Of a stretch of 32,298 bases of DNA, positions 1-31,500 are shown piece by piece. Position 1 is the first letter of the stretch, and every line of letters begins with the position of its first letter. Source of the DNA: Reclinomonas americana ATCC 50394. Its lineage: Eukaryota. Both the position numbers and the translations under genes were made by a program. The notes under the pieces are model-generated. The model worked only from the letters and a program-made list of their open reading frames with translations, did no database searches and was not told the origin of the DNA. The stretch lies in the NCBI GenBank assembly GCA_048213135.1, contig PS015360.1:41636-73933 (forward strand), in the 5' to 3' direction.

Positions 1-3000
1 TGATGTGGTGCGCGAGGCGTCGGCCGGTGCGCTGGCGGCGCTTGGTGAGTGTGTAGGGAGTGTGTTAGTTTCCCTTGGAGGACTGTCGTGTCACTCATGC
101 TGCCATGCAGCGTACTACCATCCGGCCAACGCCGAGGCCATTACGAGTCAGCCAGGTGTGCTGTCGGCGCTGGTTGCTTGCATTGCTCCGACGCAGAGCG
201 AGTCGATTCGTTACGCGGCGGCGCGGGCGCTGCAAAACGTAGCCGCCAACCACGCAGGCACACGCATCGTTCTTGCGCAAATCCCCTGCTTTCTGGAGAA
301 TTTGCGCTCCCTTCTCGCCGACTACCTGCCGTCTGAGCTGCACGAGATGGCCTCGGGCACGTTCAGCAACATTGGTCTGTGTTTTGCGGTTCCGCCTCGT
401 CGTAGAGAAATGTCGCTGATTTCAGTGTCCATAAGTCCTTCACAAACCCAACCGCGACGCCATTGTGCAAGCCGGATGCGTGGCTCCTCTCATTGCGTTG
501 CTCGAGTCGCCATCAAAGCGCGTTCAGCTGCACGTGGTACGCACGCTGGATCAGCTGGTGAAGGAGAGCCGTGAGGGTCGCATGGCTGTGATTGACGCGA
601 ATGGCATTGAGCACTTGCGACGACTCAGTGAGAGCCGCAGTGCCGACTCTGACGCCAAGAAGCAGGCCAAGTCGCTCCTGTCTGGGCTTCGTGCTCCAGG
701 TCTTGCCGCGTCCTCTCGTGTATGTATTTCATGACCTTCAGTTCCTCACTCTCCTTCCATGCCAGCTGCCGACGTGGCACGGGCCGCCAAGCCGCCGCGT
801 CCCACAGCACCGCCATCGTCAGCGCCATCTGCTTCGTCACCTTCGTCACCGTCATCCACTGCGCTGTTGGCCTCCATGCCGTCACCACCCTCACAGCCAT
901 CCACACGTCCTGTGGAACGAGCGCGACCGCCGACCACTGCCGCCGAGGGTGCCTCCAGTGCCGGTGCGTGTTGTGTGTGTTTTGCGTGTGTGCACGTGCA
1001 TGTAAGGGACGTTCCTCTAATCTCTTTGTGGTGGTCGACAGGGCGCGCCGGCTCTCTGCGACGTGAGCGCTGATGATGCTTGCTGTTTGCTCTCCCCCGA
1101 TCCTCTCGCTCACTTAAATCGTGTACAGTTCGCGCCGGCTCGTTCTCCATGCCGTTTGCGTTGCCTGCTGGTGTGTATTTTCTTCCACGGTAATGTTGAA
1201 AGGCTGTATGAAACTGAATGTTGGGAGTACACAGGCGCTGTCGAGCCAGTGGGCGGCCCGCCACCACGTCCTCGGCGTCAATGTGAATACCGTGCTTTCA
1301 TTTCTTGCGCTGAAGCGAACTCACCACTCCCTCCGTGTGTTGTGCAGTGCCCGGAAGCTCAGCAGCCGATGCCATGTCACAGCAGCCGCCACGGGGGGTC
1401 GCGACAGATGGTGCACACGGACCTCCATCAGCTGGTCTGTTGGCTCTGAAGTGCACATGATGGTGTTGGCGAGTCCATCTCACGCACTTGTCGCTCTTTA
1501 TATTGCAGCCGCCGGTGCAGTCAGCATGAGTGCTCTCCTCGGCACGCACGTTGGTGTGTGCATCTTATGCGGGCGGGCGTATCTTGTTGCCGGCAGTTGG
1601 TCACTCATCGTCGCGCAGAGAATCGGTCTCCCAGCCGCTCACCACCCTCCAGCGGCACTGCGACTCCGGAGCGCTCACCGCATGGCAGTCCACGCCGCGG
1701 AACCGAATCGCCGCCTCCGCCACCACCGCCACCACCTCGTTACGAGCATGGTCAACTCACGCACACACAAACTACTGCTCAATGCGCAGTTGCTTCCATG
1801 CAGCTCCACTCTTTATCCGCGTGTCTGCCGATCGCCGGGGACTGTCGACAGCAGTGCTTACCGCACTCGACGCCAATGCGTCGCTTGCCGACCTCCGTAA
1901 GGCCGTGTGCGGAGCCGATGCGCAAGCGGACGTGGAGTGCGTCGACGAGGCCACGGGTCGAGTGGACGTACTTGGCACGAATGCCGTTCGTCCTGCCTGC
2001 AGTCGCGAATCCTCGTCTGCTTGAACTCACTTCGTGCTCTTTGCACAGGCGTGGCTCGCATTCAAGCATCGCATGGCCGGCGCTGGATTCGACACCTCGC
2101 AGCTTGTTTTCCAGCGCTCTGCTGGTCGTGCATCTCGCGAAATCGGCAGTGGAATCGGGCCGGGTTCGCTGCCGCCGAGCGTGCAGGTGGACAGTGGCGC
2201 AATGCAAGTGCCAGGGCCATTGCGTGCCAGCTCTCTCACCGACGAACAGTTGCGTGCGTGCGCATGCATTGGCTGACGCAATACTTGTTGACATGGTGCG
2301 TTGCAGGGCCAACTTCTTCCGGCAGACACACGCGCTGTTCGAGGTGTCGTTGCCAGTATTGCGTCGACTTGTGGAATCGCGCTACCGGGCGTTTGTGACG
2401 AAAATGCGTGGAGAGGACCCGCCATTCGACGGTCGCCACTGGTTCCTCAAGCCAGAAGAGCTGTACTGGAGGTAGTGCACGTCGCTCGTTTCCAGCGTCT
2501 CTTTCATTTTGCCTTCTTTTGTGCTGACTTGTGCGCATGGTAGATACAAACGCGCCGTGGCAGGTCCGGCGGGTGGCGTGGTGGAGCAGACAGTGACAGT
2601 GTCATTACCGGAGCACTCGGATGCGTTGCGCGAACTGGCCACTGCCGGCTCTGCACGACTGTTTGACCACACGTTTGCCAGTAGCTTCTTGCAGCGTGCT
2701 TGTTATAGACCCGCAAGTCGTACGGGCGCACGGAAGTGCAGTGCGGTCGAGTGTTTTGATTCGGCGACCGGGCATGATCGATTTGCGGAAATGCTAATCC
2801 CCGAAGACACTCTGGTGTGTGGGGCTCTCGTAGTGGTGTCGTTGCTCCTACATGATATTGCAGCTCATTTCTTGCGTGGTGCAGCGAACGGCAATTGCTC
2901 ACGTGCAGCGGATACGCAACGACACGACGAGAGCGAAGGATATGAGTGTGCCTGTCGACGAGTATCGTGAAAACATGCGCGCCATCAAGAATCTACTGGA

Positions 3001-4591
3001 GCTGGCACACGACGAAGAGGCTCGTCGCAGATTACGCGAGATCCGACACGGTGTGACTGTGCATGTCCGAGAGAGCATCTACGTGGCCTCCAACTCACTC
3101 ACGTTTGCGTGCGCAGTCTCCGACTTGGACATCTCGTACGACGATCTGGCAGGCTGCCGAGCCAATCTCGCTCTCAACATTGTGCCACCGGAGGAACTGA
3201 TTATCGACCGCGACATGATTCTCGGCGAAGGTGCGCGGCAGTGTGATGCTGGTTTACTGTCAACCTCCCATGTTCACCGTCGATCATCGCAGGCGCATTC
3301 AGCATTGTGTATGCCGCCGAGTGGCTCGGTCATCATGTGGCGGTTCGTGGTCCTGCGCGTCGATCGACGGCCTTCGCTGTGGTTGCGCTCACTGTATCTT
3401 GTATGTGTGCAGCTGAAGCAGTTCCGCTGTGGCTCTGGTCAGCGAGCAAAAGTCATGGAGGACATGATCAATGAGGCGACGGTGGCCATTACACTGGCAT
3501 CGTGCGTTGCCTCCTGGCAAAATTGTCACGATTCTTCGATTGTTACCAACTGACTTGATGTGCACAACACACAGCCACCCGGGCATCGCCACCATCTATG
3601 GTCTGGCCATTGATTTGCAGGAGGGACCTGGACTGATTGTGGAGCGTGTGAATGGAACTGATTTGGGAGCGCTGCTGTACGGCTCGAAGCGAAGATCGTT
3701 TTCACCTGCAGAGGTTGGGAGAATGGCGATGCTGTAGCAAGTTCCTTGCGTTGGCTGACCAGGATGACTTGTGTGCAGAAACTGAGCATCTGTGGCCAAG
3801 TGGCGTCGACGCTCGAGTTCCTCGTTGCGTGTGTTGCTGCTGCATCGCGTGTGTTTGCTTTCTGGCCTTGACTTACGACACTCCGTGCGCCATGCAGCAC
3901 GAGAATCGCATCATTCACCGCGACTTGAAACCCGAGAGTTGTGTGCAGTTGCATTACCGTCAACAAAATGCGCTCCTGAAACCCTCCTTGCGCAGATGTC
4001 ATGGTGGAGCGCAACGGGACGGTCAAGTTGCTGGATTTCGGTCTGGCCAAGGTGCAGAGCACGTTGTCCACCATGTCGGGCAGCTTCCTCGGAACGCCTG
4101 GGTATATGGCGCCCGAGATTTGCATGCATCAGGTGAGAGCGAGAGGAGCGGTGCGTTTTTTCTTTTTGCTGACTGCTTCTGCAGCCGTACAACGAGAAGT
4201 GCGACTGCTACGCGTTGGGTACGTGTGCACACCTGCCTACCTCGGTCCTCTGGTCACCTGCTCACTCCATTTCCATGAAAGGCGTGCTGATGTACGAGGT
4301 GTTTTCGGAGCAACGCGCCTACGAGGGCATGAGTGGCCTGCAGGTGATCACGGACATTGTGGCCGGCAAAACACCCGAGCATCGACACAACCTCGCAGCA
4401 CTACCGCCGCCCATTGCACGCATCATTTCCGCCTGCTGGGTACGTGTGTGTATCACGGCTCCCGTATCTCTCTCAATGGGAGAAACCAAGCACTGATATC
4501 TTTGTTCTCACACACACTGTTGCAGCATGCAAATGTCAGCAAACGGCCGTCGGCTGCCGAGGTTCGACAAGCACTGGCGAGCTTGGGATGA
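1..4591 (+). CDS. Multi-exon (~25 exons) ARM-repeat / Pro-Ser-rich / PB1-or-Ubl-like / DZIP3-type HEPN / TKL-family Ser/Thr protein kinase, 5'-partial
   Basis: Spliced frame is continuous from the window start to TGA at 4589-4591. ARM repeats include 'SIRYAAARALQNVA' and 'NRDAIVQAGCVAPLIALLESPSKRVQLHVVRTLDQL'. Kinase motifs after splicing: ILGEG|AFSIVY, VA|LK, alphaC E (MINEA), IIHRDLKPE|N, DFG, GTPGYMAPE, KCDCYALG|VLMYE, CW|HANVSKRPS. Introns GT-AG, e.g. 45-110, 375-435, 964-1041, 1063-1128, 2249-2306, 3824-3897, 3938-3995. Confidence 0.85.
2236..3048 (+). other. DZIP3-type HEPN domain within the kinase gene, catalytic His apparently replaced
   Basis: Spliced 'LTDEQANFFRQTHALFEVSLPVLRRLV...SARLFDHTFASSFLQRAC...IPEDTLRTAIAHVQRIRNDTTRAKDMSVPVDEYRENMRAIKNLL' follows the HEPN_DZIP3 pattern (E..N+.R...L....LR; FD.T....L...C; P.D; RN...H; s+..++Y/F). 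Recognised by eye only. Confidence 0.65.
3170..4591 (+). other. Protein kinase catalytic domain (tyrosine-kinase-like group), all catalytic motifs intact
   Basis: GxGxF, VALK, HRDLKPEN, DFG and APE motifs are reconstructed across introns. 'IVPPEELII' pre-kinase segment and 'CW....KRPS' end are typical of TKL kinases. Confidence 0.93.
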
Positions 4592-4718: not shown

Positions 4719-4720
4719 GA

Positions 4721-4809: not shown

Positions 4810-7800
4810 ATGTCAGAGACGCCACCTCTCACAGACTCCATTCACGGCTCCTCACTGGCCCTTCGCCGACGATCAGTTGCGTGTCACCTCCCGACACACA
4901 CAGAGAGAGCGCGCGCGTTTGCGTGCGAGAAACAAGTCATGACACACATACTGTCACAGTCGACCACATTCATGTCGGCCTCGTCACTCCCGCTGCAACG
5001 CAAGTCATCCATGCCAGCCTCACAACTCGCCGCTGCCGCTGCCGCCGCCTCCGCAGCAGCAACAACCACCACCACAACCACACGACGACCTCTGCGCAGA
5101 CAGGCCAGTGATCGCTCACTCGGCGAGGGCAGTCTCGCAGGCAGCAGTGGCTCGGTGGTGATCAAGCGCGTCTCCATGGACTTGCCCGAGGCCGAGATGG
5201 TGTCGACTCCGACGTCGTCGGATGGACTGACGCCGACGGGAGGCGGGCCGGTGACGCCCTTTGATGATGCCGAGTATCAGCAGGCGATGCGACTGATGGG
5301 GCGACGCCGCTCGTCGCTGACGGCGTTGCCGCTGAATGGACTGCCGGTGAGCCTGTTGGTGTCGTCGGTGGCGTCGGTGTTGCCCAAGGACGCGGGGAAG
5401 ACGGCCGCGGAGATGCAACAGCAGTCATGTTGCGGCTGTTGAAGAGTATCTCTCTTGGCATTCTGTGTCGTGACCAACATCTGTGCGCAGCGCATCATCG
5501 GACGACGCGTTCGTTGACGGTGTTTGGCTCGTCGTCGTCGACGACGCGGTCGCCACGGACGTCGCCCAGATCGACGCCGCGTACGACTCCCAAGTCGACG
5601 CCGCGCGCCTCGCCCGTGTCGAGTCCGCGCAGTTCACCGGTGAACGTGTCGCCGTTCTCGCCGGCGCGCATGTTGCGTGTGAGGGTTATCTTGTCTCTCT
5701 TGTTTATTTTGTGTATGTGTGTGACATTGCGTGTCAGTGTGGACTCGACGGCGGCTCCACCGGTGCCGTCGTTCGCGGCCGATCTGGTGTGCACTCTGCG
5801 TGGTCACACGGCTGCGGTGACGTCGCTCAGCTGGCACCCGCGGGAACTGTGTCTGGCCAGTGGCTCCAAGGATTGCTCGGTGCGCCACTGGGATCTGTCG
5901 ATGATGTCGTCTGCGGTGCCGAGTCAGGTGGTGGGCGAGCACGCCGACGCTGTAGATTCGGTCGAATTCTCCGCGGTTGACGGCGCGTGCATCATGGTGC
6001 GCCTGTGTCACTCGCGTTACGTACGTGCACATGCTGTGCTGATTGCTTCTGTTGTTGCAGTCGAGTTCTGGCGACAAGGTGGTGAAAATGTGGAGCGGAG
6101 TCGGCAGCCTGACACCGTCCGTCACCGTGCTGCCGGATCTCGGGCAACTGGCGACGCTGGCCCCCAATGGCGACCTCGTGGCCGCCCGTGGTGCCAACCA
6201 GGAGAGCAGCACGATCCGTCTGTACAAGACCAGTGCCGGCGGCAAGAACGTGGGCTCGCTCCGTGGACACACACGCGGTGTGCTGCACTTGGCGTTTTCG
6301 CCCAGCGGCCAGCAGCTGCTCTCCGTGTCCTCTGACAACACTGGTCGTCTGTGGAGCGTGGCGCAGCGCACCTGTGTGCACGGTACGTTTCAATGATACA
6401 CGGGTGTGATGGGGAAGCGCAGGCGCGCACTCACTGTAGGCTGACCACGGCAGTGCTGGAGGGACACACCAACTGGGTGTGGTGAGTGAGCCGTGTTCTT
6501 GGTCACGCACAGGATGGTTATCATTCTCACCGTGGAACTCATGTCACAGGGGCGGTTGCTTCTCTCCCATGGGAACTCGCGTCGCGACCTCGTCGGGTGA
6601 CAAGTCGATTCGATTGTTGCGTGGATGGGAGGAGAACAGCACTTGTGCCCTTTCCGGTCTCACTCGGACGTGATATCGCAGGTGGGACACAGTGACTGGC
6701 GCCTGTGACATGGTGCTTCTGGGTCACGATGCGGCAGTGCGCGACGTCCGCTGGGATCCGATCGGGCCGTACTTGCTCACCAGCTGTTGCGTCCGTGATG
6801 CTCTTGTTTGCTGTGTCGATTCACTCACCTTTCCCCCCTTCACACAGCCGACGATTCCACGTTGCGCTCTCACCGCATATTAGATCTCCTCTCTCTTCCC
6901 ACTTGCTCACCACTTACACACAGTGTGCGCATCTGGCACTCCGAGTCTGGAGTGTGTCTGACCTTTGTCTCGGCGGTGGACTCCAGCATATCGGCCGTCG
7001 CCTGGGCCGACGACGGCATTCACTTTGCCATGGCGAGCGCAAAACACATTGGCGTGTTTGAGATTGATGCTGCTCGAGTGACGGCGCAGGGAGTGCCGAC
7101 ACCCGAGGTTCGTGTCGACGACTGCGGCTCATGTTTGGTGGTGGAGTTCGACACGTCGTCGCTGCCGCCGCGAGCTTCGGTGCGACTGGTGGTGCAGCGA
7201 GAGCGAGCATCTGGGTCACCGGCGCCGGATATCGGTACGAATTCTTCGTTCTCCACTCCTTGATATCAGATCTCTGACTGACTGACACACACCAGTGTTG
7301 GAGCCACAAGAGTTTGTGCCGCTGGGCGGTCACGGTCGCTTTGGATGCTTCGTGGCGGTGCCCGAGGAAGGCTCCGTGCGTCTCCGACTGGAGGCCCGCG
7401 GTCGCCCCAAGCACCGTGCTTCCGACATTGATCAGTCGCTCTTCTCTCCGTCGCCGTCTGTCGCCTCGCCCGCTAATGACGAACCGTGGTCGGAGGGGCA
7501 GTGGGTCCATGCGACTGTCCGTGCAGGTATGCGCACCTGTGTTACTACAGTGTGTACGAGCACATCGCTGAAGGAGACTCTCTCGTGATCAGGGTACTTG
7601 CACCTGCGCGCGCGTGCAGTCAGTCCTTTCAGCGTATCAGTGAGCTGGAACAGCGATGCGTTCCGCTCCATTACACGTCGCGCACCGTGGGTGAACGAGT
7701 GCAGACGAGTGCCCACGGCATTGCCACTTGAGGACTCCCGATTGTTGCGCACCTCGCATGCAGTGTGCGGTCTCCACATCAGGACAACTGACTTTCTTTC

Positions 7801-9323
7801 GGTGTGTATGCACAGATCGTGCAAAGTCATCAGCATGCGAGACGAGGCTGTTGTGTTCCATCAGCACGATGTGCGTCCATTCACTGACTCCATCACGGCG
7901 TCACGACTGCTGCCGGGCACTCGGTACCGCGTGGAACTCGGCCTTGCGGGTTGCACGCGACCGGCGGAGGTGATCACTGTCGACACGCCCGAGCTGCCGG
8001 CACCCTCCGAGTCGCCGCTGGCCGAGTGTGCGGCTCTGATGGAGAAGGTTGGTTGTCGTGTCACAGGCGACTGTCTTCTTTTGTTGATGGCGTGTGTAGA
8101 TTTCATCCTGGATGATGCCGCTCTCTGGCGGCAGTGTCTCTGCACTCCACTCGTACCGCACTCGTCGCCGAAGCAGGTTGCGTACTGCTCATCTGTCGCA
8201 CCTTTTATTGGCGCGTGCTGTTCACTCACTTCCACGCAGTGCGTCGACGCAACTGAAGCGCATGGCCACCAAGGACGCTCCCGACGGTCCCACAGACGCC
8301 GGTGCTGTGGATGCCGATGCTGCCGCAACGGCCAACACTCGCGATGTGGCGCGTATGATTCTCACCCGCACACACAGTGTGGCCGACGAGTGCGACTCGC
8401 GGTTGGCCGAGGGTCTGCTGAACCACAAGGGCACGGCGGAGATTGGCGGCGAATTCGCGGACCTGCTGTCCGCCAACCTCGGCGACCTTTCGCAACAAGC
8501 CGTGGCGGCGGGGCAAGCGTTGACCGCTGTGGCAGCCACGGAGGATGGCGTGCAGTACGTGACATCGGCCACCGCGGCGGCCTGTGCGCGCAGTCGATTG
8601 CGTGCGTCGGGCGCAGCCTGTGCGTTGTCCGTTGAGCCGTGGGAGGCACGGCGCTCGGATCGCGACATGCCGGTCGCCTGGCAGGATGTGCAGGGCAAGT
8701 GCAGACAGCTGTCGGAGGTGGCACACGAAGCCGCGCAGCAATTGGCGCAGTCGCTTGCGAACCTGCACACCCAGGTGTCGGAGGTCCGCCGCACCAGCAC
8801 CGCCCGACGAGAGCAGCTCGAGGCCGAACTGGCGCGCATCCAGCGAGAGCTGGAGACCGAGACCATCAAGGTCAGACGCAGTTGCTCGCGACTCTGTGTT
8901 GTTTCTCTCGTTCCCTTACCTGTGGCTTGTGTGACAGCTCAAGTACGCCGACGGTCTCGACGCCATCCTCAGCAGCCATCAGAAGCGGGTCGACGGACAA
9001 GTCGACGCGCTGGCGAACCGTGCTGCAACTCTCCGCACTGCTGCCCAGATGCCCGAGGTAAGCCTCGCCCACCCATGCTCTCCCCCTTTTTGATGCTGAC
9101 AGCGTCGTCCACGCAGTGGTTCTGCGCTCGCCTCAGCACCCTCAGCGACGAATGCCTTCGCTTGTGGAACCAGTGGAAATCCAACGAGCAAACCACGCTG
9201 CTCCCGCAACACGCCTCCTCTCTCCTACAAGCACTAGACTCCACCGATTCCACCACGGGCCCCGACACGGACGCCATTCAAGCAGAACTTCGTCAAGTCG
9301 CGTCCCGAGGGACAAACTCATGA
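4810..9323 (+). CDS. WD40-repeat protein with Ser/Pro/Arg-rich N-terminus, FN3/Ig-like beta-sandwiches and C-terminal coiled coil (paralog A, ~17 exons)
   Basis: WD40 repeats: LRGHTAAVTSLSWHP..LASGSKDCSVRHWD, LRGHTRGVLHLAFSPSGQQLLSVSSDNTGRLW, LEGHTNWV|WGGCFSPMGTRVATSSGDKSIRL|WD, LLGHDAAVRDVRWDP. FN3-like motif 'SRLLPGTRYRVEL'; heptad-rich 'RREQLEAELARIQRELE'. ATG 4810, TGA 9321-9323. Confidence 0.85.
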
Positions 9324-9395: not shown

Positions 9396-12300
9396 ATGAG
9401 GCACCGCGCAGTGTCACTGGCAGTCACACTGCTGCTGCTGCTCATCTGTGTGGGTGCACTGGTGTCTGGTGAGTGCCACACACACACAGTTGCACGTGCA
9501 CGTGTGTGAGTGTTGCCACTCACCCTCTTGCACGTGCGCAGTGGCAAACGCGAAAAAGTCAAAGAAGGCGCCCTTATCCTCCAACAACAAGCTGGATGAG
9601 GCCGCACGTCAGCACGAGCAGGTGAAGCGCGCACAGGCTGAGCTTGACGCAGAGAGGGCCAAGTCGGGCAAGAAGCAGAAGAAGGCGGTGTTGGGTCCGG
9701 CGGCTCCGGAGGCCGACGAGGCCGATGATCCAGCGCGACAGGAGGCCGAGGACCGGCTGAGAGACTTTGGAGCGGAGCATCGTATGCACAATCCGCAGCC
9801 GTCGCCGCTGGTGCCGCGAGGGAAGAACGAGGGCGACGATGAGATGCCGAATCGCAACCCGAATACCCCGGAGGATGGCATTGTGCCGCACAAGCAGTTG
9901 CGACAAAGAGAGAGGCTGAGCGTTTCGTTGCTGTAGTTGTGCAGTTTCGTGACGCGTGTGTTTTTGTAGTGTGCGTCGCTCGTTGCTGGACTATGTGGAG
10001 CGCAAGATGGCGTTTGATCGCTCCGGTTGCGCCTTCCCTGGCGAGCAGCGTCTGTGCATTGGTCGTATTACCGAGTACTACCAGCAGGTTTGTGTGTCTG
10101 TGCACGCATGCAGCGATGTCTTGCATGTACTGAGAAAGAAGTGATTTTCCTTTGTGTTTCTCTCCAGGTGGTCTCTGGCATCATGCACTACCTGACGGTG
10201 GAGATGGGAGGCGAGCTTCTGGAGGTGCAGATCCACGAGCATCCGGCCAGTGAGCAGGCTGAAAAGTGCGCTGGCTTCACGCTGTTTCATGTCACTTGGT
10301 GGTCGCCGAGGCCTGATTACTTGTCGCAGGCATCACATGCAGTCGATTGACATTCCGCCGCGCCAGCAATTCTACGAGCTGATCAGTGTGGCGCGCCCTG
10401 GTCAGGACCCGCCACCGACTGGCTTCTTTGATCCGTCGGCACCGCGCCTGCCGGAGAAGCAGAATGGTCCCAGCGAGCCGCCGGCCACAGTGCCTGGCGG
10501 TGTGCCGACCACCACTCCTCCGCCCGGCTCCGCACCAACCATGGCTCGCCTGCGCCGTGAGGTGCACGGCTGCATGCTGGCGTTTGATCGCGCTCGCGAG
10601 GCACAGGCTTGCCGTCGCCGCAAGCTGTACGTGGCCGAGAACGTGAACCTGACGCGTTTCTCCAACATGCCCGCCGCACTCAATCCCGCCTCGGCGTTGA
10701 CCACTGCCGCCACTGCGCTGGCGGAGACCTCGTCTGCCGAGGCCACCTCGCGTGTTGTCTCGCAGGAGCAGCTGCTGCAGCTCAGCACAAAAGTGCTGCC
10801 GTCGTCGTTCTCGTGGGTGCCGGCACTGAAGAAGCTCAACTGCCACTGGATCATGAACCAGAAGGGCTGCGGCTCCAGCTGGGCTTTTGCCGCCGCCACC
10901 GTGCTCAGCACTGGCATGTGTGTGCGCACCAAGGTCGGTGGAGCTGTGTGTGTGTGTGTGGGCACGAAAGAGGAGTTTCACTCACACCTCCCTTCACCAA
11001 CAGGGCGCCGTGCGTCAAGTGGTGTCGCCGCAAGATATTGTGTCGTGCACCTCGCCCGCCGGCTGCAGCGGTGGCTCTGCCTGGGAGGTGTTCCAGCGCA
11101 TGGACCCCGGTGCCGGCAGCAAGGATCATCCGTGGAAGGCACGTACTCAGGGTGTTTTTCTTGTCTGTAGAGTTGGAAGGTGACCTGACTGCTGTTGTGC
11201 AACAAAAAAACACAGACACTTGCAGCTCAGTGCCACCCCTACTCGGCTCGCGACGCCGCACAGGGCGACACGTGCGAAAACATCAATCGCAAGGGCGTCT
11301 GCGAGCAGCCGCGGTTGTACGGTTCGTGTTGTGAGGAAGATACGTTGGTGCTGGCCGGTGAAACTCACAGAAGGAACGCGCAGGTGGCACACACCCGGTG
11401 ATGATGGAGAAGATCCGCGACGGTCACCCAGAGGATGCCATGCACTTGCGTGCACTCATCTGGCACTGGGGACCACTGGCGGTGCGCTTTGACGTGTTCG
11501 AGGATCTGCTTACTGTTGCGTTGCACGGCAACACGCACATGATGTTAGTGTCGGTACTCACTGGCAATCATCCCACAGTATGAGAAGGGCATCTACCGCC
11601 CGACCACCGACAAGCGCGTGGGACCCCATGTGCGTCGCACTTGGAGATTTCCTTGCACTGAGAGAACTTGAGTTGTTGACATGCCCGTGTTGCGCAGGCC
11701 GCTGTTATTCTCGGATGGGGCATTGACGCCGATGAGACACCGTTCTGGATCCTGCAAAACTCTTGGTGTGTATTGTCGGGTGGATGTGCTTGGTTGTGTG
11801 ACGGCAGTGGTGCTCAACAAGAATCGCGAATGCAGGGGCAAGCACTTTGGTGAGGAGGGCATTTTCCGCATCGAGCGCACCATCGAGACGGAGACAATGC
11901 TCAACCTGCGCCACTTTGCGTGCGTTCTTCGTGCCTCACCGTGTCATAAACGTCCACGAATTGTGCACTGACAGTGATCACGCGCAGTACCATTGAACAA
12001 AGCTGGACGCCGACGTGCCCGAGCGAATGCCGCAACGGCTACCAGGATTCCAAGTGCAAGTGCTTCTGCCAGCTGGGTTTCACCGGCGAGAACTGCGATG
12101 GTTTGCTGTTGCATGTTGTGTGTGTTCTGCTTGCTTGGTTCTCCACCGTTCACTGACACGGTGCCCCCTCCTACGCAGTGTGCTCGCTGCAATGCGAAAA
12201 CAATGGCACACTTCAGCAAGACTCGTGCAAGTGCAAGTGCCCGATTGGTTTCCGCGGACGCAGCTGCCAACAAGGTCAGTCTTGCATGCAGCTTTGCCCA

Positions 12301-16898: not shown

Positions 16899-17226
16899 AT
16901 GAACTGATTTCATCTTGGATAACACGAGGCAGGTGAGAGGATACGCAGCGAGTATCTGTGCGGCATGCATGTGTGTGTGCGCGTCGGTTTGCGTTGTGTT
17001 TGGCGTGCGTGTGCAGGAGTGCGAGATGGCACACACGCACAAGACATGGTTGTCTGCCTCTCTCTCCCTCGCCCTTTCTCACACGCACGCACACCCTCGC
17101 CTTCTGCCTGCTCTCGCTCTCTCCTTCACACTCGTGTGGGGCAGTGGTGGATGCGAGTGAGCATTTGTGTTGTGTGTGTTCTGTGGTCTAATGACGAATT
17201 TGATGATGATGCAGAGAGAGAGAGGG

Positions 17227-20157: not shown

Positions 20158-20731
20158 NNNNNNNNNNNNNNNNNNNNNNNNNNNNNNNNNNNNNNNNNNN
20201 NNNNNNNNNNNNNNNNNNNNNNNNNNNNNNNNNNNNNNNNNNNNNNNNNNNNNNNNNNNNNNNNNNNNNNNNNNNNNNNNNNNNNNNNNNNNNNNNNNNN
20301 NNNNNNNNNNNNNNNNNNNNNNNNNNNNNNNNNNNNNNNNNNNNNNNNNNNNNNNNNNNNNNNNNNNNNNNNNNNNNNNNNNNNNNNNNNNNNNNNNNNN
20401 NNNNNNNNNNNNNNNNNNNNNNNNNNNNNNNNNNNNNNNNNNNNNNNNNNNNNNNNNNNNNNNNNNNNNNNNNNNNNNNNNNNNNNNNNNNNNNNNNNNN
20501 NNNNNNNNNNNNNNNNNNNNNNNNNNNNNNNNNNNNNNNNNNNNNNNNNNNNNNNNNNNNNNNNNNNNNNNNNNNNNNNNNNNNNNNNNNNNNNNNNNNN
20601 NNNNNNNNNNNNNNNNNNNNNNNNNNNNNNNNNNNNNNNNNNNNNNNNNNNNNNNNNNNNNNNNNNNNNNNNNNNNNNNNNNNNNNNNNNNNNNNNNNNN
20701 NNNNNNNNNNNNNNNNNNNNNNNNNNNNNNN
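20158..20731. other. Assembly gap (574 N)
   Basis: Run of N followed directly by a (CA)n tract. Confidence 1.
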
Positions 20732-21006: not shown

Positions 21007-22456
21007 CTACAGCACAGCGCAGCAGCCTCCACCACCCACACGACCGGGAGCGGGTCGAGGAGTTGGCATTCGCATGTCGGGATTCAAAAACGCCTGCTTC
21101 GTATGAGTGAGTCGACTTATTGCAATTGCAGCAGCAACAGACGCGAGTGGCGACGCAACAAGCACGGCTGCATCGAACACGTCCTTGATGCCTACAAAGT
21201 CGAGCGCACTGCACTCCACAAATGCCACCGCGCCGATTGCCCGCGCACACTGGTCGCCCTCGGCGGTTTGCACCTGCGGCGGCCTGGGACTGTCGGCCGT
21301 ATGTCGCAAATCGATCTTGGTGGCCACCAGCACCACCTTGGGCGTTGTCGTCCGTTGCTTCAACTCGGGCAACCACTGCACGATGATGAGAAGAAGGGGA
21401 GAGGCGACGATGATGCGCACAGCAAAACATGCATACCACGTCGGTGATATTGGCAAACGAGGCTCGGTTGTCGACACTGTAGCACAAGACGAACACATCG
21501 GCCTCCTCGTACGCCACTCGCCGCAGTCGAGCTGGTGCGAACAGTGTGTGTGAGAGAGAGCGAGAGACAAGGAGCGAAATAGGTCCACAAGCGCACACAC
21601 CGAAATCCTCTTGCCCTGTGTATGTATGTGTGTGCGCACGCAGCGAGTAAGCAACCACGCAAGCCACTGGTGAGCAGAGAAGACAGAGACAGGGAAGGAG
21701 AGCACACTCACCGCCCGTGTCATGCAACACAATATCCAAACTATCGGCTGCAGATGTTGGTGCGCTGCGCTCCCACCATCAGTGAGAGAGAGAGAGAGAG
21801 AAGCGGGCAGAGAGAGACACGAGCACACCTCGGCTGCTCGCCCTCTTTCCACGCAGTCATTGGAGGAACTTGCACCGAAGGAGTCCTGATGATAATCATC
21901 ATTGCCGTGAGTGAACATAACGACATAACAACAGCCGTGTGTTGCATGCGCGCAACGTTGCCTCCAGCTCTGTTCTGTTAAGAGGGACGTTGACCGTGTA
22001 CACTGTGTGTGTGGAAGCGCACGTGTGTGAGAGAGAGAGAGAGAGACTGCATGCGTGATGATGACAACAATCCAACCACTGCAGCACAGGCGGGAAGTCA
22101 GTCATCTCATCACATGCACACTCACTCTCTCACTCAGACACACTGTGTCGCACGCAACTCGAGCACTGTGGGAGCAAAGGCACGACCGGCGTCGGTGAAC
22201 TCCTCCGTCAGGCGACCGCGCAAGTATGACAGCAAGAGACACGTTTTGCCTGCGAGAGCACACGCTGTGTGTGAGTTGCCTCTGTCACATGCGCTCTTGG
22301 TGAGCACAGGCACAGACCAACAGAGCCATCGCCGACAACAACGCCTGTGAGGAGAGCAGTGTGAGTGCCCTCTCTGTGCTCTCTCTCTCTCTCTCTCCTT
22401 GTCACCACGCAACAGTTGAATGAGGGCGGAGGCTGAGCAGCAGCTGTTTCTGCCAT
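21007..22456 (-). CDS. Rho-family small GTPase (atypical, ~11 exons), CaaX-prenylated
   Basis: Spliced: MAETAAAQPPPSFNC|VVVGDGSVG|KTCLLLSY...FAPTVLD|V|YTVNV...LDIVLHDTGG|QEDFA|RLRRVAYEEADVFVLCYSVDNRASFANITDV|WLPEL...VVLVATKIDLR...FVECSAL...VFDAAVL|AFLNP...GGGGCCAVL*. G1-G5 boxes and C-terminal CAVL present. Confidence 0.92.
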
Positions 22457-22548: not shown

Positions 22549-25500
22549 TCATGGTCTCTGCCAGGAGGACGGTGTCGGCGCGGAGCCGACGGAGGCGGTG
22601 CCGGAGAGCTGATGAAAGGCGAGTGCCGAAGCGGAGGTGCCGGCGCCGGACGACGTTGTGCTGCTGCACACGGGCGGGTTGAAGACGGCGACTGGAATAC
22701 CGTGCTGGAGGTGTAGTGCGCGGACGCAGAACATGAGGAAGCGGTAGACGTTAAAGACGCCGCTGGAGTGGTTCGGCACGGAGGGTGATGCAGTGCCTGC
22801 TGTTGCTGCTGCCGCTGCTGCTGCGGCTGCTGAGGAAGCGCTGCCAGCTGACGAGTGTGAGGATGAGCCGGCTGACGAAGCAGATCCACTGGACATTCCG
22901 GTCGGCGCGGCACCGGACTCGCCCGTCAATTGCCCCTTCCGCGAGTACCACTCCTGCGCGCGCATGAGGAACTTAACAGCGTCCTTGGTCTTGCGCTCGG
23001 GCACAAAGAGCAGCGTGCAGTCGGGTCGGTAGCTGTGTGTGTGCACGCAGGCGGAGCAGTCAGCGAGGCTGTCTGTCTTCATGCGACACATATGTAAGAC
23101 ACAAACCTCAGCAGCGTGATCAACACCTCCGAGACGTCGATCAGATCGGCCCAGGTGAAGAGGAACACGGGCAGGTTGAAGGATTCGGTGTTCGAGTCGA
23201 TTTGCGTGATGACGTCGAGTGGCGACACCTGCAGCTGCCCCACGTCGAGGAAGCGCACGTACTTGTACTTGCGCCGGTACGACGAGTCGCTCTTGCCGAG
23301 TCGGATCAGCGGCGTGTGGAATGGCGAGTTCGACGAGGCGTCGGTGATGGCGTCGGGCACCTCGTTGCGCAGATGCATGGCATGGAAGTACAGCTCAGCA
23401 ATGTCGGCCTTGCGCTGTCGCTCCTGGGCCGCGAACGCCTTGGCATCGGTCACCGACGAGGCGTAGCACGCAAAGTACTTGGGCACGAGCCAGTTGCCGG
23501 AACGCTCCGTTGTCTGTGCCAACGAGTGAGTGAATAAAAAAAAGAGTCCACAGCTCATCTCTCCACAGACCTCAGACAGGTGGCGTGCCAACAGACTCTC
23601 CAGCGTAAACGAACGCGCCAGCAGCGCCTGGAACATGAGCTCCCACGGGAACAGACGCAGCGAGTGGTTCGTCAGCAGGTACAGCGGCGCTGGTGGCACT
23701 CGCGTTGTGTGCAGATCGGGGAACTTTGGCGCATCACTGGTGAAAATGCGCGCCAACAGACCACGCGACTGCGGTGCCTGTGGCGACTCGCTCGTCACGT
23801 CGGCCAGCGCGCACGGCATGCCTTGCGCCTGCATGCCGACATACGCAAATGGACCCGTAAACACCGTGTCGCGCAACACCTCCGCGAAGCGAACGGCATC
23901 CTCCACAGCCGAAGTGCCAGCCGCCTTCTTCTCCACACGACCCTGACTGACGAGTGCTCCGAGGAACTCTTGCACCTCACTGTCGAGCGTGGTCGCCGCT
24001 CCGGCCACAAGCGTGTCACCAATCACGTCCGATCCTGTGAGACGCAGTGCCGAGGAGCGACGCATCGATGCGGCGGTCTCGCCACCAATCGACGTCGACG
24101 AAGACCGCTGACGTCCACTAAACGGATGCACCGAGGTGAAGCCAGTTCCGGGAAGGTAAAACACCACCACGTCGTACAGCTGGATGGCGTACACCAACTT
24201 GCCGAGGAGCCGCGGAGGCGTCCGTGTCACCGGGAACGGACTGGTGGCACTGCTGGCGGCACCTAGTGAGGGCACAGCCAAGCCGCCACTCTTGCCGTGG
24301 AAGAGTCCTCCGAACTCGGGATCGGCCGACGGTGGTCGACCAGCAGCAGAGGCACCACTCACTGGAGCTGCGGTCGAGCAGGGGCCGAATGAGCACAATC
24401 GACAAGAGAGCAAAAGGAGGGGAAAAACTGAGTGCCCTCTCTCCGACTCACCGATGGGGCTGAAGAGGCCACGCACTCCACCGTCGAACACCGACGATCC
24501 TTGCAAATTGGGCGCACTGGTCATGCTGGGCAGGTGACCACCCAAGCCTCCGCCACCGCCACCACCGCCGACGCCACCGACGCCAACGCCAACACCACCA
24601 CCACCCGACGCAGTGGTGAACGACGCCGCGCGAATGTACTCCATCAAGTTCACCAATCGCCTCGCAATTCTCCGATTCTGTTGCTGGAACTCCACCTGCA
24701 CACAAACCCCGAGTGCACTGTGTGAGACGACACCAGCAAGAAAAATGGAGAGGAAAGCGCGCCCTTCTCACTCACATCCGACAGTTGACCACGCGAGTAC
24801 GACCGCGAAATGAGACGCAGGCGGTAGAAGAGATTCCAGCCGCGCTCGGCATAGCGTTCCATGTCGAGCGTCAGGTTGAGGGCGTTCGCTTGCAGTTTCT
24901 GCAAGTGAACACCAGTCAGTTATCAGGTGACAGATGCTGGCAGGTGGAGGAGAGACATTGGCTGACCTGCGAGGCCGTCGAGCGCACAGTCTGCGAGCCA
25001 ATCATGGAGAACCAAGTGCACATGCGACTTCTCCTACGCGAACTCTTCCAGCTGCCCGATCCCGACGAACTGCCACTTGAGCTGCCCACGGATCCATACC
25101 GGCGACCATTTGTGGTTCTATGACTCTGCCAGTCAGCGGCGCAACACACACACAGCAGGAAGAGGGACACGTGAACAACGCAACAGGCTGCCAACACGCC
25201 TTGTCCGCGTCCCCGACGACGAGTCCAGCGGAGTGCCGTGGAAAGTGGAAAAGTAGTTGCGCTGTGGTGTGGAGGTGGCCGTGTTCTTGGCACGACTGCG
25301 ACGTGCCTCCAGTGCTTGTTTCCGTCTTTCGTGACTGCGCGTCGTGTACCCCGACATGATGCCGGCGCCGCCAGATGCAGAACCACCAGGGGCTGCCGCG
25401 GTGGTGGTCGACGACGACGACGAAGAGCTGTCGCTGCCACTCACAGTGTCGCGAACGGCAGAGAAACTCGGTCGTGGTCTCCGTCTGCACATCACACAAA

Positions 25501-28500
25501 TCAGTGGTAGGTTGGTGGCGACGACAGCGGACACAACCACTCGCGCAACTCGTCAGAGGTCATCACAGGTACTGCGCCATCTTCCGGTGACTCCTCCACA
25601 GGTCGCTTCCTCGCCTGCGTACATCAATCAGCAACTCACGCCCTGCCGCGGCAACAAAGGCATTTGTGTGCATTACGCACCTCGTGCAGCTCCATCTCCA
25701 GCAAGAACAACGCGTCGAAAATCATGAGATTCTCATTCACCACCTCCCTGTCGAAGCACACGAGTGCACGCGAGAGCCGCAGCAAAATGTCGTAAATCTG
25801 CCACATTCACGCACACGCAGAACGTCAGCGGCTGCGGGCAGCAAATACGTTGCGCATCGCTCCGCACCTTTTCTACAAACGGAGGCGGGGCACCGCGTGA
25901 CAGCAACACGGACGTGCCATCCATGAAAAACGAAAACAGCTGATCTCGACATTCGCTCCAAAATGCGCGCGCAGAAGCTGCAGCGATGCACGTCAGCGGT
26001 GAGGAAGCGGATGCAGCAGGGAGAACTTTCAAATTCGAAAAAAAAAAACTCACCGGTGCGCTCTTGCAGAATGCGCAGCTCGGCCATCAGACAGTAACAG
26101 TGGAGACTCATGAAAATGTCACATGTCCGTGCCGCATACGTCATGGACACGGTGAGCAACCGATCAATGTCCGACATGTGCAGCACGCGCTCATCGTCAC
26201 CGCCCTCTGCAGGCACAACGATTGAGGAACGTGCGATACAACAACCGAGTGGACTCGTCGAAAAAAAACGCACCGCAGTGAAGGAGCGCCACCTCGCCGT
26301 ACGGTTGCCGCAAAAGTGCGACCGGCACAAACATGTGGTTGAGCATGGTGCGCGCCTGCGACAAGTAGCACTTGCTCACGCGTCGCTCATCGGCAACAAT
26401 GCGGTAGTAGTGCGCGGCAATCTCGAATGTGTCCAGCGCCAGTGCGACAATGCCACCCACACCGTTGTAGGTGTGAATGTTGTGCTCCAGGGCCAGCAGC
26501 GGCTGCGTCAGGTACTTTGGAAAATGTGAACAAAAGAGTCCACCAGTGATCTGCATGCCGCCGCCAAATCCTGCACGACCTCGGCCGAGTCAGACACACC
26601 ACCGCATGACATCACACTGCACCGCATCCACGCTGCTCACCCGTCATGCCAGCCATGGTCAACGTGGTGGGGAACTCGAGCAGATGCTGACGGTCAGCAA
26701 TGGCCAGCAAGATCTTGCCCTTCATGTACAAGTGCCGACCGAGGCCACTCAAGTTGACGGGCGAGCACATGGAGAGCAGCACGTCGACCCACAGCAGCGC
26801 CTCGACAAAATAGCCCTGCGGCAACCAAAAAATCAATCAATCAACTGCGACTTGTTGCTCGCGTGGAGCAGACGTGTACACACCCCATGGTAACAACACC
26901 GGCATGCCAACTCGACCACCGACAGGTCGGCGCGGACAAGACTGCACGCAGCATGTGAGACAGAAGACTCCATGGTGTGAACCGCTTTCCACGCACCCTG
27001 CGTCACTACTTGATCGCTCTCCTGCAGCACGTCGCGGAACAGGCTCATCCAGCGACCGCGCCAACGTCGCCGTCAGACCCACGGCCTGCTGGAACAGACG
27101 CTTCTTGAGGTACGCCTGCACACACACACACACACACACACACAGTGGTATGAGTGAACACGAAGTAAGACAGGACTACTCGCTTCCTCCCCCCATCTGC
27201 ACCTCGGCCAAGAGCATGAGAACACCGTGCGCCTTTCCACGTGGCAGATCGGCCTCCTTGAGATCCTCCAGCAGGTCGATCGCACGCTCAAAGTAGTACC
27301 CGTCGAGGAACAGACGCGCAAGCTTGACTTGCAAATGGAGGTAGTTGACGTCGATGCGGTACAAGTAGCCGGTCTCCATCTCGTCCAGCTCATCAATGGC
27401 ACTCATGATGAGCAACTCGGCACCGCGCAAGTCACCTCGCTCCAGCGCCATGTCCGCCAGAATCTCCGAAACGTACACAATCTGGCACAAGGGATGGATA
27501 TGAGGGGTGGCGAAGTCGATAGCACTACTGCTTCGTGTATTTCACACACCTCGTTAATGTTGCGATCCTCGCGAGCCTTGCGCAGCACATTGGCGTAGTA
27601 ATCGGTGGCTCGTTTTGCGTCGGAATGCTCTCGACATATCAACGCCAAGCGCCGTATCAACGTGTGGTCCGTGTGGCCAGGGTGCATCAGTGCATACAAC
27701 TGCAGCGAGCTCTCAAAGCACGCAATCGCGTACATGTATTTGCCGTTCGCCAGCAGAATCTCCGCAAACTGAGGAAGCGGAGAAAACATGTGAGGTGAGC
27801 AGCAGCAGCAGCAGCAGAAGCGACAGGAGTGTGTGTGCTTCACTTACCTCAGCAAGCACTGCTGCTCCGAGATCAGACAACACGGCGGCAACACAGCGCA
27901 CGTGTTGTGGCATGTGGTCGACCACAAAGACGGCCTCGAACAGCAGATTTTCTGCCATCATCACATTGCGCTCGTAGTTGCGCAAATGGAGTCCGAGAAG
28001 CCACGCCATCTTGGCCTTGACCTGCACCAACAAGCACTTAGGTCATGCACTGGTCCCGTGAAATGTAGCAACACGCAGCAACGACCCACCTCGGTGAACG
28101 ATGCAATCTTGCCGTACAGCTCCCACATTGCTCGGAGACGAATAGTCGGATCTGTGGCATCCATCGCAAGATCAGCGCCACAAAACCCAACAGTAGAATG
28201 ATGAGGAGCAACGCCGTACGTACCAAACACGAACTGAGAGATGGAAGAGAACTGCTCGGTGACAATGCGGTGACAATGTCTCAGGCAATCGTCTGCGAAA
28301 TCCGCCTCCGAGAACTGCGCAAATGACAGCGACTGGAACAGCACCAGGTGAGCTTCACAGCGCGGCATACAGCGCATGAAAACACAAGATGCGAACGCAC
28401 CTCGTCGCGCCGCAGTGGCAACATCGTGAGCGGACTCTTGCCGGTCAAGTACAAATGCAGGACGCACAAGGCGTCGGCACACAGCTCCTCTTGCGGTGTG

Positions 28501-31500
28501 TTTTCCAGCAAACCGCGACTGCGACCCTCCACGTTCGAGGCAGGTCGGGTGGACGACAGGCGAGCACCACTTGCACTGCACGATTCACAGACGTCATCAT
28601 CCAAACACACACAACGCATGCGCCACATCGCCCCGACAACCGACCTCAAGTTGAGGCTGCGCAGCACCGAGAAGGTACTCTGCAGTACCCGACACAGCGA
28701 CTCGATCACAAGGCGCTGAACAGTGGGCAAGTCGGGAAACGCAAACGTGTGGTGCGCGAATCGCTCGGCCTTGCTCAAGTGCACAAAGGGAACGTGCTCA
28801 GGGAACACGTCAATCAAAATCTCGCACACTCGCTCAAACGCGTTGTGATTCTCCGGCGCCCAGTCCACCGACATGACACGAAGCAACTCCTTGGATCGAT
28901 GAAAGAATCCTGTCACACGTTCGCACGACTCTTCAGCACCAGCGTTCCTCCACCTCAGCAGCGAACACAAAACACACACAAACACACCATTGTGATGCTT
29001 GTAGTCGTCCTCGTCCATCACCGTGCGCTTGGCATCGGGTAGCTGCGTGAAATAGTCCAACGTCGCCTCCATGGCCACCTGCTTCTTGGCATGGCGACAG
29101 GCGCCAGCCACGAATACGAGATACTCGCTTGTCCATTGAGGTGAGAACTGTGTAACACGCAAGAGTAGGTAAAATAAAAGGATTCTGCGGGTGCTACCAC
29201 ACAGAAGCGACGACACCTTGTCGACGTAGAGGACTCGTGCGCGCAAATGTGACAGCGAGAACGTGTCCGACTTGATGGTGTCCGCATGTTTGCTGACAAT
29301 CTTGACGAGCCACTGTTCAAGTTCCTCCTCGCTCAGTAGCTTGATGCCGTCGCGGGTGAGCAACGTCAGCAGCATGGGCGGCTTGTGGTATTTGACAATG
29401 TGGATGTTGTTCATCATGGGGTCGTCGGGAGGCAAGAACTTGAAGCGCGACGGGAACAACTCCTCCTCGGCGGCCGTGGACGCGGTACCGCCTGCCGCAC
29501 CATCTTCGCCGGCACGCATGATCGCGCGCAGCATGGCCACCGTTGAGTTGATTGGAGGGTCGGTGGAGTGCGTGTCACGAGGAACCGCCGACGGATTACT
29601 GCATCGTGACGAAACTCAGAACAATATGCAACCGGCGGCAAACATGCAACTGCGAGAGACAGGTGAGTACGCAACGCTCTGCTCTCCTCCTCCTCAATCT
29701 CCAGATCCCAGTCGGACTCGCTGGAGTCGTCGGCTGCTGATGAGGCCGCCACCGCGGCTGCCATTGCCACAGCCGCACCCATGGATGCAGCGCCGGTGGC
29801 CGCCGACGAACCAATTGGTGTTCCATTGCCGCCACGAGCAGAGAGAGCCAGCAGCGGCGACGCAGTGCCGGCCAAGGCATTCAGCGTCGGCTGCATCACC
29901 GACGATCCGTCCTCAGAGTCGAAAGCATCGCTATAATTGGAACCCGTGCCGATACTGCGATGCTTCGCCTGCTGGAGTCCGGACCGGCCGGCCACTGACT
30001 TGGCGGTCTGCAACAACGAGAGCGCCTCGTGTTCCAAGATCGGATCGTCGATCTGGGACACACACATCGAGGCAATGAGATTCGATCACACATACGAACA
30101 AGAGAAGAGGTGCGGACGTGCCTTCCTGGCGCCCACGATGGCGTGCTTTTGGAACTGGAACGACAGATCGTCGTCGCCGAGGTCGAGTGCGATTTGAGCA
30201 ATGTACAAACACGACATGGCAAATGGTCTGGAAGTATGAAGGTGCGCGTGTGAGCCTTCAACCACATAGTCTCCTCTCCCTTCCCTTTCTTTCCTCCTCC
30301 CTCACCTGGGATAAAATACAGCACCCAACGGCGCAGAAGTACATAGCCTTATGGCGTCCACCAAATGCCGACCTGCCACTGTGGAGCGACCAGCGTCGAG
30401 AGCACACCGGCCCAACAACGCCTCAATGTGCGCTCGCACTCCCGGCAACTCCACCTGAGCCCACGCACCCACAATTCAGCGACATGCATGAAACAGGCAG
30501 GTCTCACTCGATCTTTGTGGCAGCTAATCACCGTGCTCAAAGCCTCCAACGCCCGCTCCAACATCTCGGTGGCGGCCGTAATGTTCTGCAGCTTGATCAA
30601 CGCCTCGCTCATGTGAGCCAAGCACTCGGTCTGCAGTCGGTCAACTGCGGACGACAAAAAAGACGATGAGCGACCCGACCTCTCACGCATCATGCTGAAT
30701 GAGAGACGAAACAATCGGCTCCGCTCAGCGTGTCGCGATACGACGAAATGCGACTGTACGACTGCTCCAGGCGCTGGAAGCACTCGGCATCTAACCGCTT
30801 GTCGCGAAACAGGAGCGCCGTGTCCATCGACACGCGACACTCGTTGACCACGTCACCCTGCTCGCGTGCGGCCGATAACCTGCTCTCCAAGTTGCGTACT
30901 TGCTGCGACACATCCACATAATCGTCCTCCTCTCCCTCGTAGCCAGTGGCGGCCGACGACGACGTGGCCGACTTGCGTGATGGAGATGAACCGAGGGCGG
31001 CCACAGCCTCGAGGAAAGACTCCTCGTCGACACCTGTGTGACAACATTGGTGAGATGGCCCACATGCGCGACCCCTTCCGCTGTACGCAACGTGGAAGGC
31101 CGGGTACCAGATCGGCAAACACTCGAAGCAACTCGCGCTCCTCATCCGTGATCTTGTGACCGCCGTTGGCCGACGCTCCCGCTCCTCCACTCCACGAACC
31201 ACGACGCCGACTCGACAATCGTTTCCTCACCAAGTCACGCTGTGCTCTCTTGCTGCGCGCCAGTGCCCCTTGCAGGCCTGCATCACACCAAATAAGCACC
31301 TGTCATTCAACAACCCTCACTGGCACATACACACGCACCACCAGGCGCCGGTGGAGGTCTCTTGCGCGCCGAGTTATTAAACAAGTGTCCCTGTCCATCG
31401 GCAGTGACAGGCGTCGCCGTCGCCGAGTTCTGTCCACTGCCACCACCACCACTGGCACTGCCACTGGCCGTCGCCGCCGCTGTGAAATGATCGGGGGTGT

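Follow-up and report, generated by a model that had tools for sequence, protein, structure and literature searches.

Abundant GTTGCG donors tied to exons that do not end in G: a candidate 5' splice-site class in a Reclinomonas americana genomic window

Outside the GT dinucleotide itself, recognition of a 5' splice site is supported most strongly by the G at intron position +5 and by the G that closes the exon (position -1). The present work concerns a stretch of 32,298 bases from Reclinomonas americana ATCC 50394 (contig PS015360.1, positions 41,636 to 73,933; hereafter the window), in which about a quarter of the modelled introns start with GTTGCG, a donor that has no G at +5 and hardly ever follows a G at -1. 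The closest described counterparts are human sites read in a shifted (+1) register. According to PMC4856993, which cites Roca and Krainer (2009) for them, these sites are rare and have all their base pairs with the U1 small nuclear RNA (snRNA) moved by one position, and the validated non-canonical registers together make up 1.5% of 201,541 human sites; the original prediction's statement that shifted registers are rare in mammals agrees with this source. As described there, the human shifted sites resemble the GTTGCG donors in that the GU at +1/+2 is followed by a U at +3 and that G is missing at +5 and present at +6; the cut is likewise made at the GU, and a G at -1 is not relied on. They differ in that positions +4 to +6 read AAG and so fit textbook U1, whereas the window class carries GCG, whose predicted pairing to textbook U1 is very weak, and in being rare, whereas GTTGCG accounts for about a quarter of the modelled donors here.

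Lineage-wide atypical donors are documented elsewhere: according to a preprint (bioRxiv 10.1101/2022.06.08.495308), Entamoeba combines a U1 end ACAAAC with a GUUUGU donor, and Mastigamoeba a U1 end ACGUAC with GUGCGC. Both recall the window, the former through its U at +3 and the latter through GUGCGC, and in both a changed U1 5' end is a possible explanation; in these organisms, however, one transformed consensus replaces the ordinary one, whereas in the window two classes coexist in the same genes. PMC11732430 describes two major classes of human 5' splice site, set by pairing with U5 loop 1 or with the U6 ACAGA box. The idea in common is that a seemingly single consensus comprises two classes whose strengths on the exon side and the intron side complement each other, but GTTGCG corresponds to neither as these are presented there, because it lacks both the exon -1 G and the intron +5 G. 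No description of a GTTGCG/GUUGCG donor class was found among the top-ranked papers of an open-access literature search, where the hexamer turned up in primer-type contexts only; papers showing such donors only as a logo would be missed. I judge that shifted U1 registers at rare human sites are known and that the abundant, GCG-bearing form, modelled in one window, would be new.

Abundance and cut positions of the GTTGCG introns

The window is eukaryotic and very intron-dense, with a G+C content of about 59% outside two N gaps (18310-19031 and 20158-20731); the plus strand carries the genes as far as about 20,150, the minus strand those from about 20,730 onwards. Introns were modelled with a purpose-built gene finder that parses chains of exons inside hand-set gene spans, scoring them by codon log-odds and intron composition, with an acceptor matrix and a branch motif, and under a prior on intron length; the window itself served as the training set for all of these. 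A motif-blind run scored all GT dinucleotides alike, so that the donor motif was unable to steer the choice. The working set of 100 introns was obtained from the motif-aware models by making eight corrections by hand and rebuilding the Rho gene. The approximately 100 modelled introns have a median length of about 67 nt and a mode of 60-80 nt, contain a CT[CG]AC branch motif (trained consensus ACT[CG]AC) and end mostly in CAG; their commonest start is GTTGCG.

The original prediction listed 26 GTTGCG introns, and the hexamer is present at all 26 coordinates on the strands given. Its estimate that they form about a quarter of some 100 introns is matched by 25 of 100 in the working set, with reservations for the conflicting and the non-unique sites taken up below. 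On both strands together GTTGCG occurs 48 times. Dinucleotide shuffles gave 36.1 +/- 5.9, and a single one out of 100 reached 48. The distribution is lopsided: relative to the genes, 33 copies are sense and 15 antisense. Modelled donors account for 26 of the sense copies, 4 fall within modelled introns and 3 in modelled exons, whereas 13 antisense copies lie inside modelled exons. The motif-blind finder used 13 of the 26 listed sites among its 92 introns. When that run was repeated with the large minus-strand gene merged, 13 of the 33 sense copies were found among 93 donors chosen from 2037 GT sites, where about 1.5 would be expected (hypergeometric p = 4e-10), while in the antisense control 2 of 14 copies were chosen; GTTGCG was the most enriched hexamer, followed by GTGCGT (8/31). 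The finder with a trained donor model predicted 97 introns that included 23 of the 26 sites; joining the large gene added 25184. All 26 candidate introns start with GT, end in YAG and measure 58-84 nt, and all 26 carry a [CTG]T[CG]A[CT] branch-like motif 8-45 nt from the 3' end, for which the chance level is roughly a quarter per intron by my own rough arithmetic. In length (median 66 vs 69 nt) and in an acceptor that is mostly CAG they are like the other introns.

The position of the cut was assayed by in-silico splicing, in which the listed GT was compared with every GT from -12 to +15 and with retention of the intron, the resulting local peptide being scored against homologues or the paralogue. 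The listed GT was clearly best at seven sites (3824, 22413, 6616, 6786, 6861, 14792 and 15717; scores in Table 1). Six of these have a GT at +6 as well, the use of which breaks the frame and scores far worse; 6861 is the one without it. The test at 6786 and 14792 is partly circular because the intron is common to both paralogues; in each protein, the way in which the other WD repeats are spaced supports the cut as well. Two further sites, 11515 and 19732, have weaker anchoring. At 11515 the GP...GWG spacing is gapless only against sequences of cathepsin B and DPP1. For 19732, the preceding exon would end at about position 121 of 132 of the Pfam FA_hydroxylase model, leaving exactly the length of the next exon. 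Removal of the intron thus restores frame and homology by computed alignment at the seven sites and with weaker anchoring at the two. When the sites anchored by alignment or motif are combined with those chosen blindly, 17 of the 26 are supported independently of the donor motif. The claim that the reading frames of conserved motifs fix the cut at the GT holds for EFL^HENRIIHRD (3824) and SIRL^WD (6616), both of which win their alignments (a caret marks the cut or junction); 8177 and 22158 conflict with neighbouring frames.

Protein searches with a WD40 exon and a Rho exon gave distant relatives only, and with a hydroxylase exon no match; a metagenome search with the largest exon gave no relatives; searches of short exons against solved structures and Pfam lacked the strength to place junctions from match coordinates; and an Atlas search returned only 'papain family'.

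The exon end and a proposed one-base shift of register

The base that precedes the cut separates the GTTGCG donors from the others in every set of introns compared. A G at -1 is found in 1 of 25 GTTGCG donors and 55 of 75 others in the working set (p = 4e-10), which bears out the proposal that the class serves donors missing that G. The corresponding figures are 0/9 and 17/20 among the 29 introns anchored by alignment or motif (p = 2e-5), 0/13 and 37/79 in the motif-blind set (p = 0.0013), and 0/11 and 30/45 among the 56 donors that are identical in both finders (p = 5e-5). As predicted, 8177 is the only one of the 26 listed sites with a G at -1; the remaining bases are T (12), A (7) and C (6). 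At one intron position shared by the two WD40 paralogues described below, the donor reads G^GTATGC in A and T^GTTGCG in B.

The suggested association of T+3 and G+6 with an exon that does not end in G was likewise found: shift-type donors, defined by T+3, G+6 and no G+5, make up 27 of the 44 donors without a -1 G and 1 of the 56 with it, and conversely donors that combine T+3 with G+5 (GTTCGT, GTTTGT, GTTGGG and others) have a G at -1 in 8 of 8 cases. Among ordinary donors, 63 of 72 have G+5. The rule that emerges for the donors is a pair of G separated by five steps, located at -1 and +5 in one case and at +1 and +6 in the other. That GTTGCGT amounts to G^GTGCGT moved by one base is supported beyond the hexamer: T is found at +7 in 19 of 25 GTTGCG donors and at +6 in 33 of 55 ordinary ones, and the class is poor in G at -1 (1/25), just as ordinary donors are at -2 (2/55). 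Three further donors named in the original prediction, A^GTTGTGT (3938), A^GTTTCGT (17811) and T^GTTTCGT (30712, minus strand), obey the same rule, the first being fixed by alignment and the other two chosen by both finders. Ordinary donors vary at +3/+4, while +4/+5 are nearly always GC in the class (25 of 28 shift-type donors); ordinary-register donors without a -1 G are mostly GTGCGT or GTGCGC.

At the level of sequence, the analysis demonstrates the existence of the class, nine of its cut positions and its exclusive link to a non-G exon end. The original proposal that GTTGCG(T) is a real and frequent donor class tied to such exon ends is, as far as the DNA can tell, partly confirmed.

Possible ways of reading the donors

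The reading I favour, with a probability of roughly one half, is that GTTGCG(T) marks a genuine and abundant donor class of the major GT-AG type, recognised one base out of step where the exon ends in a base other than G. The G at +1 of the intron would substitute for the exon G at -1, the T at +3 for that at +2, and G+6 and T+7 for G+5 and T+6, while cleavage would still occur before the first GT. The shifted reading would be made by U1 snRNA. The textbook U1 5' end is ACUUACCU; in this lineage the U1 end, or a helper, may pair with GCG better than that sequence does, because +4G and +5C of the class are nearly invariant.

Several points weigh against this reading. In duplex predictions that used the textbook U1 end (AUACUUACCUG), from which the organism's own U1 may differ, the mean is -0.8 kcal/mol for the class as against -5.25 for other donors, and just 14 of the 25 GTTGCG donors fold in the shifted register. 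No U1, U6 or other snRNA gene was detected in the window with Rfam at the gathering score. The base at -1 of the class is mostly T (11/25), that at -2 of ordinary donors mostly A (21/55), and a plain shift predicts GTTGAGT, GTTACGT and many GTTGTGT, whereas the donors seen are GTTGCG (25), GTTGTGT (1) and GTTTCGT (2). At seven of the 26 sites the cut is plausible and not unique (4876, 7744, 17986, 20047, 21159, 25184 and 25549): the introns at 4876 and 21159 are left undecided by the frame because they are in frame and stop-free, and 21159 is beyond the reach of homology because it lies in the variable C-terminal region of Rho. Two sites conflict with the neighbouring frames. Upstream of 8177, the 76-nt exon is better in another frame (-0.03 vs -2.94 nats), a frame that calls for G^GTTGTC at 8053 and for the GT at 8182, the latter five bases downstream of the listed site. 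At 22158, there may be one intron of 151 nt that starts from the GT at 22153, or two introns, of 80 and 75 nt, with a 2-nt exon TG in the middle; the two-intron option scores 15 higher against all three Rho homologues, and either may be right. Finally, the gene models are self-made, the non-blind ones having been trained on donors that contain GTTGCG, and the sample is a single 32-kb window.

Standard U1 acting alone is doubtful, because +4G and +5C are near-invariant and pairing with textbook U1 is very weak. The proposal that this lineage uses the shifted register, or a variant U1 or U6, as a routine donor class is partly supported: the statistics of the -1 base and the flanks speak for it, and a textbook-U1 pairing close to zero speaks against a simple slip of a standard U1. 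A related possibility, in my estimate doubtful though worth keeping in view, is that a genuine class is recognised by an snRNA of its own or by an altered one, perhaps a second U1 or a U1 with a 5' end such as ACGCAAC or ACGCACC, which would pair fully with GTTGCGT without any slip of standard U1. The near-invariance of +4G/+5C, the prevalence of GTGCG among ordinary-register donors without a -1 G and the very weak pairing of the class to textbook U1 favour this idea, since a GCG-matched U1 or a second U1 would explain both the near-monomorphic class and the GTGCG bias; the co-evolved U1 ends of Entamoeba and Mastigamoeba reported in the preprint (bioRxiv 10.1101/2022.06.08.495308) provide precedents. 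On the other hand, ordinary donors vary freely at +3/+4, as standard U1 predicts, and the same preprint reports a standard U1 in Thecamonas and Mamiellales despite donors with C at +4. It is unlikely, though conceivable, that two donor codes operate in parallel within the major spliceosome, with standard U1 reading G^GTNNGT and a sequence-matched U1 variant, or a U1/U6 pair with altered pairing boxes, reading an invariant N^GTTGCGT; if they did, about a quarter of all introns would require a recogniser for which other eukaryotes offer no described counterpart.

Alternatively, U1 could keep its canonical register while the U at +2 or +3 is bulged, GT(T)GCGT then being GTGCGT with one extra T. 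In PMC4856993 the human +2/+3 bulge registers, with 68 predicted sites, are described as rare, and they share with GTTGCG the extra U that follows GU relative to the consensus. In such a duplex, however, C9 of U1 stays free for the exon G, so that a G at -1 should be favoured, whereas it is seen in 1 of 25 donors, and all T+3 donors with G+5 keep theirs. The shifted register is preferred over a bulged U for this very reason, since a bulge would still profit from the -1 G, and I regard the bulge as improbable. More improbable still is that much of the class is a modelling artefact, in which the original prediction and the motif-trained finder would have snapped donors to a fairly common hexamer while the true cuts lay at nearby in-phase GTs or at GTTGC^GT. 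The overall excess of the hexamer is modest and 15 antisense copies remain, an in-phase alternative is available at seven sites, and the frames prefer another GT at two; set against this are the enrichment in the motif-blind run with its clean antisense control, the seven cuts fixed by alignment, where the +6 GT present in six of them scored far worse, and the scarcity of sense copies in modelled exons (3, vs 13 antisense).

Two kinds of introns apart from the rest were also considered. U12-type introns, which have an RTATCCTT donor and a TCCTTRAY branch site, resemble the GTTGCG class in being a second set with a sharply defined donor motif in one genome. They were rejected: the donors here read GTTGCG and not RTATCCTT, the branch-like motifs have the CT[CG]AC form that the remaining introns show too, and a separate spliceosome is unlikely because length, branch motif and acceptor are common to all. 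That the GTTGCG introns are copies of a mobile family, in the manner of introner-like elements, might be suggested by their common start and similar lengths, yet paralogues A and B have retained the same intron since their duplication. All-vs-all blastn of 97 modelled introns gave dinucleotide-repeat matches and one 18-nt match only, and revealed no common body, inverted repeats or duplications among them; because no body sequence is held in common, a mobile origin is extremely unlikely. Pairing between intron ends was dismissed as well, no CGCAAC being seen by eye near the 3' ends.

Genes of the window and meaning of the donor class

Table 1. Introns with GTTGCG or related donors, and genes, in the window. 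A caret marks the cut; blind-chosen, used by the motif-blind finder; numbers joined by vs are in-silico splicing scores, the listed cut first.
Feature	Positions	Strand	Base at -1	Evidence and remarks
GTTGCG intron, 58 nt	2249..2306	+	A	blind-chosen; CTGAC and TTGAC branch-like motifs, GCAG end; further in-phase GT at +9 (GTGCGC)
GTTGCG intron, kinase gene	3824..3897	+	C	EFL^HENRIIHRD; 77 vs 65 for the next (bacterial-type kinases); blind-chosen
Shift-type donor A^GTTGTGT	3938..3995	+	A	splice restores HRDLKPE-N-VMV...DFG; 96 vs 81
GTTGCG candidate, 84 nt	4876..4959	+	A	in frame, stop-free, without homology; motif-aware finder only
GTTGCG intron	5429..5490	+	T	blind-chosen; in-frame TGA 10 nt past donor; further in-phase GT at +9
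GTTGCG intron	5672..5737	+	T	blind-chosen; T-rich; GTGAC branch-like motif; in frame, stop-free
GTTGCG intron, WD40 paralogue A	6616..6681	+	T	SIRL^WD contiguous in B; 155 vs 130
GTTGCG intron, paralogue A	6786..6847	+	T	same position and GTTGCGTCC start as 14792 in B; 91 vs 62
GTTGCG intron after 13-nt exon, paralogue A	6861..6923	+	C	45 vs 23; DDS-T^VRIW aligns gaplessly with contiguous DDHSLRLW of B
GTTGCG candidate	7744..7815	+	T	splicing 49 vs retention 27 against B; other in-phase GT at +21
GTTGCG candidate	8177..8239	+	G	sole -1 G; frame conflict; blind finder took another path
GTTGCG intron	9897..9969	+	A	blind-chosen; GTGAC branch-like motif, TAG end
GTTGCG intron, cathepsin B-like gene	11515..11578	+	T	blind-chosen; flanking exons match C1 peptidases (partial)
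GTTGCG intron, paralogue B	14792..14863	+	T	91 vs 57 against A
GTTGCG intron, paralogue B	15717..15781	+	T	position of G^GTATGC intron 7527 in A; 68 vs 37; blind-chosen
Shift-type donor A^GTTTCGT	17811..17887	+	A	chosen by blind and motif-aware finders
GTTGCG candidate	17986..18061	+	A	motif-aware choice; blind finder took in-phase GT 9 nt upstream
GTTGCG intron, fatty-acid hydroxylase gene	19239..19313	+	C	blind-chosen
GTTGCG intron, hydroxylase gene	19732..19793	+	T	blind-chosen; Pfam FA_hydroxylase coordinates and a motif
GTTGCG candidate	20047..20126	+	A	motif-aware finder only; acceptor uncertain (80 or 93 nt); N gap nearby; blind finder took in-phase GT 17 nt upstream
GTTGCG candidate, Rho gene, 66 nt	21094..21159	-	T	in frame, stop-free
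GTTGCG intron, Rho gene	21886..21956	-	C	blind-chosen; sole GT keeping frame to GQEDF
GTTGCG candidate, Rho gene	22079..22158	-	A	phase 2 misfits next conserved exon
GTTGCG intron, Rho gene	22345..22413	-	T	splice gives N-C-VVVGDGSVGKTC; 88 vs 27 (three Rho/ROP proteins); blind-chosen
GTTGCG candidate, large gene	25118..25184	-	T	needed for continuity of ~2,200-aa gene; blind finder took in-phase GT 33 nt upstream
GTTGCG candidate, large gene	25485..25549	-	A	needed to bypass TGA at 25501; blind finder took in-phase GT 9 nt downstream
GTTGCG intron	29599..29675	-	C	blind-chosen; exon end just past conserved SDWDLEIE motif
Shift-type donor T^GTTTCGT	30645..30712	-	T	chosen by both finders
GTTGCG intron	31034..31091	-	C	blind-chosen; CTCAC branch-like motif 17 nt from ACAG end
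ARM-like gene end	1-731	+
Protein kinase gene	to 4588	+
Paralogue A	4811 to ~9300	+		WD40 repeats, FN3-like part, coiled coil; tandem with B
Cathepsin B-like gene with EGF-like modules	modules 11988-12274	+
Paralogue B	~13,400-18,304	+		WD40 repeats, FN3-like part, coiled coil, plus P-loop; tandem with A
Fatty-acid hydroxylase gene fragment		+		carries introns 19239 and 19732
Divergent Rho GTPase gene	22456-21007	-
One very large gene, ~2,200 residues	31738 to ~22,550	-

The tandem paralogues A and B differ in part of their introns: 6616 and 6861 occur in A only, 14636 and 16049 in B only, and introns 6616 and 14636 lie 10 nt apart in the alignment. Very small exons are present, namely one of 13 nt (6848-6860, plus strand), supported by the paralogue, and one of 15 nt encoding GQEDF in the Rho gene (21615-21601, minus strand); the possible 2-nt exon TG of the same gene (22078-22077, minus strand) would separate two introns of normal size. 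The Rho GTPase itself (22249-21827, minus strand) is divergent in carrying additional residues ahead of PTVLE/D and, between the YTVNV strand and the DTGGQEDF motif, an insert of about 25 residues that is partly encoded by an exon of its own. Papain-family enzymes carry CGSCWAF; the cathepsin B-like gene reads GCGSSWAF at about 10870-10900 (plus strand), so that the catalytic Cys is apparently replaced by Ser, and the context of the catalytic His, GPH^AAVILGWG, is retained. What appear to be two genes between 31738 and 22550 on the minus strand are one, because the relatives are collinear from about 29,700 to 22,660. Its product has 10 relatives among 1.8 billion representatives and no Pfam family match; those named are from Acrasis kona, Willaertia magna and Pharyngomonas kirbyi (twice), together with one plant match that is probably due to low complexity. 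These relatives are 1,500-2,000 residues long and 25-33% identical, and a Discoba-like affinity is possible. Runs of (GT)n, (CA)n or (CT)n are frequent beside donors or acceptors, as at 10946-11003, 17616-17695, 18207-18291 and 27116-27202.

If the favoured reading of a donor class recognised one base out of step is correct, a class without -1 G and +5 G that serves about a quarter of the introns would show 5' splice sites being read non-canonically in nature and on a large scale. The natural substrates on which to ask how U1, U5 and U6 fix the position of cleavage would then number in the hundreds or thousands. In practice, a gene finder that has learned its donors from ordinary sites would get many of the genes of this as yet unannotated genome wrong.

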